Below, piece after piece: positions 1 through 1,993 of a DNA stretch of 64,000 nucleotides. The notes beneath the pieces are model-generated. The model was not told the DNA's origin. It was given only the letters and a program-made list of their open reading frames with translations, and ran no database searches. Both the position numbers and the translations under genes were made by a program. The stretch comes from a virus. The first letter of the stretch is position 1, and each line of letters opens with the position of its first letter. The stretch is from IMG/VR virus record IMGVR_UViG_3300037313_001959; one strand, written 5' to 3'.

Positions 1-503
1 GCGGACAGGGCGAGGATTTGCGCGAGGGCGTGGCCAGTGCCAAAACTATGCAGCCAAAATTCCGAAAATGGCAGTTTCTTTCGCTCATCCTTGCGGCTGA
101 ACGAGGGGCTTGGCATCAGTTCGAGGGCGACGCCGGTTATGTGGTTTGACGCATCACGCAGGGGGACGTGCTGCACGCCCCGTGCGGGGTCATGCACCAC
201 AACACCACGCTTGGTGACCGCTTTTAGCACGACAAAATGGTTCATATCCCAATGGAGGATGACTGGCAGGCGCAGTTGGCCGATCTCGTCGAGGTCAAAT
301 TTTAGCGGCCGGCTAACAAGGTCAAGCTGGGCAGCAATTTGGGTGAGCGAGCGCAGCGACGCGCCGCGCAGCGACACGGGGTATTGCCGCCTTAACGTGT
401 TGAGGTCAACCTTATGGCCATAGTACCAGCTTACCATCGCCAGGCACGCCAAGCCACATTCTGCCGATTCAGTTTGTAGGATAACTGGCAGCTTGGCGAT
501 CAT
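1..503 (-). CDS. C39 peptidase-containing ABC transporter (PCAT, bacteriocin/peptide exporter), 5' part; runs off the window edge
   Basis: Not in the ORF track because it is open at the edge. My translation from ATG 503: MIAKLPVILQTESAECGLACLAMVSWYYGHKVDLNTLRRQYPVSLRGASL...VILHWDMNHFVVLKAVTKRGVVVHDPARG. This has the C39 Q-x4-ECGLACL, HW-x2-HFVV and DPA motifs. The start overlaps the HlyD stop (ATGA). Confidence 0.93.
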   Translation of the reverse strand, partial: MIAKLPVILQTESAECGLACLAMVSWYYGHKVDLNTLRRQYPVSLRGASLRSLTQIAAQLDLVSRPLKFDLDEIGQLRLPVILHWDMNHFVVLKAVTKRGVVVHDPARGVQHVPLRDASNHITGVALELMPSPSFSRKDERKKLPFSEFWLHSFGTGHALAQILALS

Positions 504-1732
504 AGCCGCACGCCATAAAGGGGTTCGAGCAGCCAGCGGTAAAGGGGGCGCTTTTCAAGGATTACGTCGGCCTTTAACGTCATGTCGGGCTGCAAGAGGA
601 CGTGGCGGGAGTGGACGTCGATCTCAAGCGCATCAAGGGATGCCGTCACTTTGTATGCTGGCGTGTCGAGCCGCACTGGACCGTGGAAGTCGGTCAGCAT
701 CGTTTGCGACACGCTTTTTACTGTCGCGCTATGGACGCCAAATTCCTGGTAGGGAAACGCATCATAGCGGATGCGCACTGCCTGGCCGGGTTCGACAAAG
801 CCGATAGCTCGGGGTGGCACGAGGAGCTCTGCCTCCAGCGCACTGTTGCTTGGGATTATCTCAAGCTGGACTTGTTTTGGATCGGCAGCTTGGCCAACCG
901 ACGCGTTGAGGAGCGAAATGTGGCCACTTGTTGGCGCGCGGACAACATAGGCGCTGCTGCCCTTGGTCTGTGACAGGCGCTGCTCGATTTCGGCAAGGGA
1001 GTTTTCAAGCGTGTGCACCTTGTCACCCATCGTCGTCGTAAGCTGCGCTAATGCGTATTCAGATTCAGATATCTGGTTTTTAAGCTTAAGGAGTTGTTGG
1101 ACCAGGGACTCAAGTTTCTGTCGCTGCTGCAACGCATCGCTCACTCGCGCAGTGTAGTCGTGGTTGCTTAGCAAGCCTTTGTGATATAGGTCGGCCGCTG
1201 GCGCAACGAGGTTTGTTGCCAACGTTATTTGCTGCTGCTGTGTTGCCATTTCACCAACGAGCGACTGCTGCTGGTTGGCATAATTCGCCAGCAAGCGCGT
1301 CAGTCGCTCCCGTTCTGAACCTTCCCTTGCCTTTTCTGCCGTTATTTGCTGCTGCAACAACATTTTTTGCTGTCTGAGGATTGACATGATTTGCTGCTGC
1401 ACATTACTCTGGTCGCTGGCGATATGCTCAGTTGTCACCGTAAAGAGGGGTTGCCCTTGTGTAACGTTGTCGCCTTGGTGGACGATCACGTCTTCGATCA
1501 CGCCGTCATGCAGCGCAAATACTTTCGCCGTGCCAGATACTGGCACGAGGAAGCCAGTTACTGTTTGCTTGTGTGAATAGGTTGCCAGTGCTAAAAAACT
1601 CGCTGCTGCCGCAATCGACGCCAAGCCAAACCACGTAATAATTTTGGTGGAGGTTGGTTGGATGAGGATGATATGGCCATGCTGCCGCTCCTGCTGCTGG
1701 AATTCAATAACCTCTTGTCGAAACAGCGACAT
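500..1732 (-). CDS. HlyD-family membrane fusion (type I secretion adaptor) protein
   Basis: N-terminal LFRQE, one TM segment, lipoyl-like half motifs (GDNVTQGQPLF; VRAPTSGHI), long coiled coil, C-terminal IRYDAFPYQEFG and LQPDMTLKAD. Probable start ATG 1732 with GGAGGG SD (track ORF starts at 1759). Confidence 0.93.
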   Translation of the reverse strand: MSLFRQEVIEFQQQERQHGHIILIQPTSTKIITWFGLASIAAAASFLALATYSHKQTVTGFLVPVSGTAKVFALHDGVIEDVIVHQGDNVTQGQPLFTVTTEHIASDQSNVQQQIMSILRQQKMLLQQQITAEKAREGSERERLTRLLANYANQQQSLVGEMATQQQQITLATNLVAPAADLYHKGLLSNHDYTARVSDALQQRQKLESLVQQLLKLKNQISESEYALAQLTTTMGDKVHTLENSLAEIEQRLSQTKGSSAYVVRAPTSGHISLLNASVGQAADPKQVQLEIIPSNSALEAELLVPPRAIGFVEPGQAVRIRYDAFPYQEFGVHSATVKSVSQTMLTDFHGPVRLDTPAYKVTASLDALEIDVHSRHVLLQPDMTLKADVILEKRPLYRWLLEPLYGVRL

Positions 1733-1745
1733 TGCGCCCTCCAAC

Positions 1746-1772
1746 AAAAAGGGGCGCATTTAGCGCCCCTTT
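1746..1772 (-). terminator. Intrinsic terminator-like hairpin between the peptide gene and HlyD
   Basis: Minus strand reads GGGGCGC-TAAAT-GCGCCCC-TTTTT. Confidence 0.7.
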
Positions 1773-1780
1773 CCGAAAGA

Positions 1781-1993
1781 CTACGTTGACGCTGCTGCTG
1801 ACGTGAACAGCGTTGCCGTGTGGTTGGGATAGGTCGGCGTGATGCTTGCTGTTATCGACGCGGATGAAAAATAGTTGCTGGCAAAGCCAGACGCATACGC
1901 GTTGCCATAGCCATTCACCCATTCAGCGCTTACTGCTGCATACGCGCCGCCAGCGACTTCGTCGATTTCATCAAAGGTTAGTTCACGCAACAT
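1781..1993 (-). CDS. Double-glycine leader precursor peptide (bacteriocin/RiPP-like PCAT substrate)
   Basis: MLRELTFDEIDEVAGG matches the ELxxxELxxVxGG leader consensus. It is followed by a 54-aa Ala/Ser/Thr/Tyr-rich core, has an AAGGAG SD, and lies directly upstream of HlyD and PCAT. Confidence 0.88.
   Translation of the reverse strand: MLRELTFDEIDEVAGGAYAAVSAEWVNGYGNAYASGFASNYFSSASITASITPTYPNHTATLFTSAAAST

Follow-up and report, generated by a model that had tools for sequence, protein, structure and literature searches.

A putative type I secretion operon for two double-glycine peptides on a soil jumbo-phage contig

The left end of the IMG/VR virus record IMGVR_UViG_3300037313_001959, analysed here as a stretch of 64,000 nucleotides (the window), carries on its minus strand what we read as a phage-borne type I peptide secretion operon captured from a high-GC alphaproteobacterium, whose effectors would resemble class II microcins or two-peptide bacteriocins; we give this reading a probability of roughly 0.55. 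An earlier note, made from the sequence alone, had proposed a precursor, an HlyD protein and a peptide exporter within positions 1-1993, and all three were found there on the minus strand: a 70-residue open reading frame (ORF) with a double-glycine (GG) leader, precursor 1 (1781-1993); a 410-residue adaptor, or membrane fusion protein (MFP), of the HlyD/CvaA type (500-1732); and the N-terminal 167 residues, with the C39 domain, of a peptidase-containing ATP-binding cassette transporter (PCAT; 3-503). The note had also pointed to the sequence left of the window as the place for the remainder of the exporter. A Joint Genome Institute (JGI) soil metagenome contig of 5004 bp, L001, which is identical to the window over 1-2514 and extends leftwards, completes the PCAT there and adds a second GG precursor just past the window edge. 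Taken together, the window, L001 and a further sequence, L162, give the order precursor 1, putative attenuator hairpin, adaptor, PCAT, precursor 2 and terminator-like hairpin, with all four operon ORFs intact.

The exporter is assigned with the most detail. Its portion in the window, which the window edge cuts at residue 167, matches Pfam Peptidase_C39 (PF03412; E-value 2.3e-32), and the full protein on L001 (2583-4685; 700 residues) comprises the C39 domain followed by ABC_membrane (PF00664; 4.1e-35) and ABC_tran (PF00005; 1.2e-31). Unlike the C39-like domain of HlyB, which has no Cys, the C39 domain here has the full catalytic set, and the membrane domain is of the fused six-helix type. In an alignment of 11 sequences, namely the phage protein and ten bacterial relatives, the catalytic residues Q10, C16, H89 and D105 are invariant, as are the Walker A motif, the LSGGQ signature, the Walker B motif and the H-loop. 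Residues 8-689 align end to end with the solved PCAT1 (4ry2; 1.5e-86), and the protein aligns in the same way with ComA. A frameshifted or truncated PCAT, the finding that the earlier note had named as damaging to its own proposal, is therefore not what L001 holds, since the protein runs to 700 residues with every motif present. The models for export of the NHLP and Nif11 type scored below their cut-offs (TIGR03796, 476 bits vs 853; TIGR03794, 36 bits vs 156), and the leaders in the operon have only 16-17 residues, in contrast to the long leaders of that type.

A GG leader was defined as 15-30 residues ending in GG, GA or GS, with hydrophobic residues at positions -4, -7, -12 and -15 and an acidic residue at -8, and both precursors agree with this definition at every position. 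The leader of precursor 1 (1946-1993) has 16 residues, with GG at -2/-1, hydrophobic residues at all four of these positions and Glu as the acidic residue at -8. When the pattern was scanned through all six frames of the 64-kb window, precursor 1 was the sole convincing candidate, with one further, poor match. The core that follows its leader (core 1; 1784-1945) is a Cys-free peptide of 54 residues and 5503 Da, with an isoelectric point of 5.2, a single acidic residue and neither Lys nor Arg; Ala, Ser, Thr and Tyr are abundant in it, and small and bulky residues alternate along it. Precursor 2 (L001:4792-4989; 65 residues) begins about 100 nt past the PCAT stop codon and has a 17-residue GG leader and a Cys-free, 48-residue core (core 2) of 4930 Da in which Ala, Val and Ile are abundant. 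After this gene comes a strong, terminator-like hairpin (L162:553-590; z -4.17). Modification enzymes are absent from the operon on both L001 and L162.

Profile searches, one exhaustive over 1.8 billion representatives and one over 5.8 billion clusters, placed precursor 1 in a family of 11 members, in which the ten relatives are 44-64% identical to it and are without exception metagenomic. Because these ten share the motif SAEWxNGxG...GFA...TP, core 1 belongs to a conserved family and is not the product of a chance ORF. No member of the family was found in 401 sampled alphaproteobacterial genomes, and the five genomes with the closest PCATs gave matches at chance level only. A word-based homologue search with core 1 and precursor 2 returned the queries themselves and nothing else, leaving precursor 2 an orphan by that search. 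In one member of the precursor 1 family, P0016, an N-terminus resembling a Sec-type signal peptide stands ahead of a degenerate GG leader that ends in TAG, and its sequence suggests that the export route was switched within the family.

An AlphaFold model of precursor 1, built on an alignment of six sequences, reached a mean predicted local distance difference test (pLDDT) score of 84.5 and consists of a leader helix and four β-strands, the strands scoring about 90; core 1 is thus confidently predicted to be all-β. When the model was compared with the PDB, Foldseek gave E-values of 0.25 or above and VIA-align found no chain at Z >= 2, so that, with no solved chain scoring significantly, the model offers no clue to function. 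The AFDB yielded only unnamed proteins of 71-97 residues (best E 4.4e-3), and the atlas rows were weak.

The adaptor matches Pfam HlyD_3 (7.8e-17) and NCBIfam type_I_hlyD (TIGR01843; 3e-42). Its ORF spans 500-1759 in full, and translation probably starts at Met10, whose ATG lies at 1732, rather than at the ATG at 1759: a GGAGG ribosome-binding site precedes Met10, the upstream ATG falls within the loop of a hairpin, and the protein was called with 410 residues on another assembly. The adaptor N-terminus, MSLFRQE..., is one that we take to be typical of CvaA-type adaptors, and the adaptor stop codon overlaps the PCAT start codon in ATGA. The hairpin itself (1745-1775, minus strand) lies between precursor 1 and the adaptor gene and has a 13-bp GC-rich stem with a U-tract after it; folding of 86 nt gives a minimum free energy of -41.3 kcal/mol (z -4.96), and none of 200 shuffled sequences folded as well. 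Attenuators in bacteriocin operons usually sit between the precursor and the downstream genes, and this hairpin is likely an attenuator that keeps precursor mRNA above pump mRNA. Upstream of the operon, a block of about 25 nt (approximately 2037-2062, minus strand; GCGATGyCGrG..CC.CC.CGG), some 44-69 nt ahead of the precursor 1 start codon, is kept in the window and in two related loci, L163 and L171, whereas the remainder of the leader region has diverged; from this comparison it is a candidate regulatory element, be it an operator, a promoter or part of the 5' untranslated region. A 60-residue ORF that overlaps the start of precursor 1 (1978-2160, minus strand) is not hydrophobic and is disrupted by indels in L163 and L171, and we did not retain it as a gene.

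The closest relatives of the PCAT, at 60-65% identity, come from soil metagenomes and from genomes of Microvirga, Acetobacteraceae, Bradyrhizobium, Xanthobacteraceae and Methylobacterium. In a maximum-likelihood tree the phage protein has a long branch and falls within a clade of 28 rows whose Shimodaira-Hasegawa-like approximate likelihood ratio test (SH-aLRT) value is 100; all taxonomically named rows of this clade are alphaproteobacterial, and the others are the phage itself, L168 and rows labelled 'uncultured proteobacterium'. L168 (GC 0.63), which is probably a bacterial contig, has a member of the precursor 1 family (52% identity) alongside an adaptor and a PCAT of its own. In the four operon genes the G+C content at third codon positions (GC3) is 0.56-0.65, vs 0.46-0.51 in ten other genes of the window. 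The alphaproteobacterial clade and the raised GC3 point to an operon captured from bacteria, and the sequences fit a high-GC alphaproteobacterium, which lies within the hosts to be expected for this phage group, as the source from which an ancestor of the phage lineage took the cassette whole, with partial amelioration afterwards. Because the operon proteins differ by about 35% between related phages, the capture is not recent.

The bacterial relatives also bear on the cargo. Upstream of their pump genes they encode two to four paralogous GG peptides in tandem, whose Cys-free cores of 55-75 residues are rich in Gly and Asn (L105:3586-4554; L087:3552-4397; L104:3197-4453; L050:176-746), so that a cargo of several peptides is the norm in this PCAT clade. 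In the soil Alphaproteobacteria among them (Microvirga, Acetobacteraceae, Bradyrhizobium and Methylobacterium), the uncharacterised PCAT/MFP loci, whose pumps are 60-63% identical to that of the phage, have the same gene order as the phage operon; in contrast to it, they are chromosomal, and neither phage peptide has a homologue among theirs. No papers were returned when the literature was searched for alphaproteobacterial class II microcins or GG peptides.

Among characterised systems, the layout is that of colicin V and class II microcin export (CvaA-CvaB-TolC), in which a GG peptide of less than 10 kDa is exported by a PCAT, an HlyD-type adaptor and an unlinked TolC. The phage operon shares the PCAT, adaptor and GG peptide of this arrangement. 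Class II microcin clusters, however, are plasmid-borne or chromosomal in Enterobacterales and have an adjacent immunity gene, which the phage operon lacks, and their cores are unrelated in sequence to the phage cores, of which core 1 is predicted to be all-β. PCAT1 (4ry2, 6v9z) and ComA (8hf7) have the same three domains and catalytic residues as the phage PCAT but are Gram-positive, distant in sequence and adaptor-free. With respect to RaxAB-RaxST, the phage operon holds no further enzyme gene and its neighbours gave no transferase match; the RaxX and RaxST sequences were not compared directly. The Caulobacter CdzABCDI system is alphaproteobacterial and, as in the phage operon, combines a PCAT and HlyD protein with two unmodified GG proteins and an unlinked TolC (PMC5380434). 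The Cdz proteins have an extended GxxxGxxxG glycine zipper and consist of about 75% Gly, Ala, Val and Ile (PMC5380434), whereas the phage cores contain no GxxxG and reach 37% (core 1) and 48% (core 2) in these residues; in addition, Cdz has a three-transmembrane immunity protein, CdzI, and no protein of that kind is encoded beside the phage operon. The earlier note had likened the trio to colicin V, RaxAB/RaxX and CdzAB, which holds as an analogy of architecture and does not extend to the glycine zipper of Cdz.

The note had also called such a system unusual for a large T4-like phage. Rare it is: phage-borne bacteriocin clusters are uncommon, and those described lie almost entirely in temperate phages of commensals or pathogens (10.1101/2020.10.01.322628). 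It is not unheard of, since the sublancin cluster of SPbeta is a precedent and indeed the paradigm of a phage-borne bacteriocin that arms its host, and nearly all described phage biosynthetic clusters are bacteriocins (10.1101/2020.10.01.322628). The SPbeta cluster (sunI, sunA, sunT, bdbA, sunS, bdbB) likewise joins a GG precursor, a stem-loop and a C39-ABC exporter in one operon, and its annotated stem-loop, between sunA and sunT, occupies the same place as the hairpin at 1745-1775. Nevertheless, SPbeta is temperate and its host is Gram-positive, so that it needs neither adaptor nor outer-membrane channel, whereas the operon described here is in an Atu_ph07-like jumbo phage. Sublancin is a glycosylated, disulfide-bonded glycocin encoded with modification enzymes and an immunity gene, as opposed to two unmodified, Cys-free peptides encoded with an HlyD adaptor and with neither enzymes nor an immunity gene, and SunT is only about 21% identical to the phage PCAT.

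Searches of phage sequences returned little that is closer. Phosso and Atu_ph07, the two nearest cultured phages, have neither a C39 domain nor an adaptor. Among 50,697 phage records, the adaptor has no close homologue (best 22-23% identity), and the best match to the PCAT (36%) lies on a Salmonella chromosomal contig filed among phages; the other PCAT matches there fall in SPbeta-type Bacillus phages, unannotated Gram-positive phage records and small faecal contigs. A nucleotide search of the same records with window positions 1-6000 and 38000-52000 gave no match. Exact-pattern and single-protein scans of IMG/VR found nothing, and a profile scan of its 2.9 million contigs found six PCAT relatives at 36-43% identity (L173-L178); prophage boundaries drawn too wide, rather than phage cargo, may account for them. 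The identifiers of these six resemble prophage calls from isolate genomes, and several of the PCATs adjoin the end of the viral contig. A survey of 224 jumbo-phage genomes does not mention a PCAT, an HlyD adaptor or a bacteriocin, and the literature found on phage-borne GG-peptide exporters or bacteriocins comprised SPbeta sublancin and the survey of phage biosynthetic clusters, with no jumbo phage. New here, then, are the Gram-negative, three-component form with an HlyD adaptor, its jumbo-phage lineage and the two peptide families.

Several core genes in the right half of the window identify the contig as phage. Its clamp loader is 54% identical to that of Sinorhizobium phage Phosso (469 kb) and 50% identical to that of Agrobacterium phage Atu_ph07 (490 kb), the N-terminus of a structural protein shows 48% identity in the comparison with these phages, and a 369-residue ORF is 38% and 31% identical to its counterparts in Phosso and Atu_ph07, respectively. 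Within 30227-33551, a piece of a split DNA polymerase (30227-30757; 176 residues; phrog_11127, 2.1e-50), the clamp loader and PhoH follow one another as in Atu_ph07, and the window holds several tail-fibre genes. On these sequence comparisons we class the contig as an Atu_ph07/Phosso-like jumbo phage of uncultured soil origin. To the left of these genes lies an accessory region of 30 kb, which contains no bacterial housekeeping genes, has a GC content of about 0.50 and is filled with many ORFans; of its ORFs, the polymerase piece at 30227 alone has a homologue in PHROG, Phosso or Atu_ph07.

The position of the operon within this region raises the question of whether a bacterial chromosome or island was misjoined to phage DNA, or whether the left 30 kb is phage at all, a misassembly of host and phage being another finding that the earlier note had named as fatal. 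That the genes of window 1-30 kb lack homologues in the two cultured phages, that the GC content of the operon exceeds the window mean and that all contigs recovered end 2.5-3.3 kb left of the window start would be expected in that case. We nonetheless consider it highly improbable. A separately assembled 33.8-kb Logan contig, possibly from the source sample, begins 2.8 kb left of the window, reaches about 31 kb and so places the operon and the phage DNA-polymerase gene on one contig at even depth; in other samples, precursor 1 and its neighbour are linked by short contigs, also at even depth. Two diverged relatives, with operon proteins at 63-74% identity, retain the same neighbours: in L171, from another sample, an HD gene 88% identical to window 3667-4323 immediately adjoins a precursor (63% identity) with an adaptor and a PCAT, and in L163 a 34%-identical homologue of a 237-residue window protein keeps its divergent placement next to a precursor (66% identity) and an adaptor (72%). 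In addition, a 13-nt hairpin unit, GTCATCATATCCC, flanks the operon on both sides, with six or seven copies in the 840 nt left of precursor 2 (L162) and an array in the same orientation at window 3270-3481, compared with only 3 occurrences in 1.47 Mb of unrelated loci. The flanks, at a GC content of about 0.50 and full of ORFans, are unlike high-GC alphaproteobacterial chromosomes, and one contig of 86,897 bp is recorded as carrying both precursors. Still less credible, in our estimation, is that the operon is genuine phage DNA but an inert passenger of no further use to the phage. Although no promoter was recognised and neither an outer-membrane nor an immunity partner is encoded, the four ORFs are intact, and the operon persists in phages whose operon proteins are about 65% identical. 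Moreover, in a variant population at 95-99% identity all 11 single-nucleotide polymorphisms (SNPs) in the adaptor gene fall at third codon positions and 10 of the 11 are synonymous, a pattern that indicates purifying selection on the adaptor.

If the operon is active, its products would be handled as follows. The attenuator would cause the precursors to be made in excess of the pump. In the infected cell, judging by the families to which the proteins belong, the C39 domain of the PCAT would cut each precursor after Gly-Gly, and the ABC domains, the adaptor and a TolC-like channel of the host would carry two unmodified mature peptides across both membranes: an uncharged, β-rich peptide of 54 residues and an Ala/Val/Ile-rich peptide of 48 residues. 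These may act on the envelope of neighbouring bacteria, in parallel with SPbeta sublancin. On our analysis, the candidate roles rank as bacteriocin of a class II microcin-like kind, then surface coat or exclusion factor, then signal; the bacteriocin is placed at the top because of the SPbeta and phage-cluster precedents and the similar bacterial loci.

A number of observations weigh against the bacteriocin reading. No toxin family was recognised in the cores, neither of which matches a Pfam or NCBIfam model, in keeping with the earlier note's description of core 1 as Cys-free and unrecognised. Its remark that no TolC or immunity gene is visible agrees with our searches: no window ORF of at least 400 residues matches an outer-membrane efflux family, which makes the TolC-like channel an assumed host component, and no small hydrophobic or membrane ORF adjoins the operon in the window, L001, L162, L163 or L171, the sequence left of the window start having been covered to about 3.3 kb. 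Scans upstream of precursor 1 for sigma-70-like and CTAAATA sites found none. For window 1-8000 no RNA data set was listed as a match; one rhizosphere metatranscriptome run shares a small fraction (0.15) of window 1300-2100, and it was left out of the evidence. Furthermore, the nearest cultured relatives are reported to be lytic (PMC6102473; PMC11242549 for a related Sinorhizobium jumbo phage), and in a phage that is probably lytic as well, a bacteriocin has no obvious benefit by lysogenic conversion. The missing immunity gene and the probably lytic lifestyle thus count against a bacteriocin and in favour of the two other roles.

The first of these, a surface coat or means of superinfection exclusion, strikes us as unlikely, albeit less so than a misassembly or an inert passenger. 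The exported β-rich peptide, perhaps with the second one, would aggregate on the infected cell and mask receptors or alter the envelope, shielding a long infection from other phages or keeping progeny off debris; the logic is that of Cdz-like surface aggregation minus the killing. An uncharged core 1 rich in Ala, Ser, Thr and Tyr, with its alternation of small and bulky residues and its four modelled strands, would suit such a role, the absent immunity gene fits a non-toxic product, and the Caulobacter peptides CdzC and CdzD, which are exported in a like manner from GG precursors, can remain on the surface of the producer (PMC5380434). The cores, however, lack the Cdz-type glycine zipper and the Gly/Ala/Val/Ile content given above, and the structure model was built on six sequences only. 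Alternatively, the peptides might serve communication, as a diffusible signal of infected-cell density to other cells or phages, in the manner of streptococcal ComC and BlpC, a role that we also hold to be unlikely and rank just behind the coat. The cargo of PCATs includes signalling peptides in addition to toxins (PMC7018657), and the absence of immunity and modification genes fits a signal. The phage peptides are also only 63-66% identical between related phages, vs 88% for the HD gene, as is often so for signals that determine specificity; yet bacteriocins just as typically diverge fast, the operon is not flanked by a gene for a sensor kinase or other receptor, and at 54 and 48 residues the cores are longer than the GG pheromones known to us. 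More broadly, and tentatively, a probably lytic jumbo phage may release its own peptides through the captured pump as extracellular effectors under phage control rather than as a lysogenic-conversion bacteriocin; receptor masking, interference with rival phages and signalling between infected cells would be their conceivable, equally tentative, uses.

The surroundings of the operon hold further features. The 237-residue protein (2474-3187, plus strand), whose homologue on L163 was described above, has no Pfam family, and an atlas search gave only unnamed, partly viral clusters; its gene is absent from L171, and it is possible that the protein is a companion of the operon that the operon does not require. 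Together, the operon and this gene are bracketed by GTCATCATATCCC arrays of the same orientation (L162:684-1278 and window 3270-3619), the HD gene is likewise bracketed by arrays, and at the L171 junction both the array and the 237-residue gene are absent. The arrays may mark the borders of exchangeable gene cassettes; the promoter/stem-loop cassettes in the hyperplastic regions of T4-type phages are similar. A dispersed paralogue family was considered as a tie between the two halves of the window and set aside, the compared pair having no significant similarity. Elsewhere in the accessory region, a gene for an M23 peptidase with an N-terminus resembling a signal peptide (7835-8467, minus strand) adjoins an ORF at 7241-7834 (plus strand), and a transfer RNA (tRNA) gene, tRNA-Cys (GCA), lies at 5575-5648 (minus strand); beside the latter, the contig from one sample omits 43 nt at 5523-5567. 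With the exporter and this peptidase, the accessory region encodes several products directed at the envelope or the outside of the cell.

If the operon is active, a large phage of the virulent type that infects soil Alphaproteobacteria would make its host secrete peptides across both membranes, and the range of effects that phages have on the community around an infected cell would be wider. The two new peptide families come with a ready-made exporter, and, were the effector interpretation to prove true, the β-rich SAEWxNGxG peptide would represent a new class of phage-made extracellular factor.

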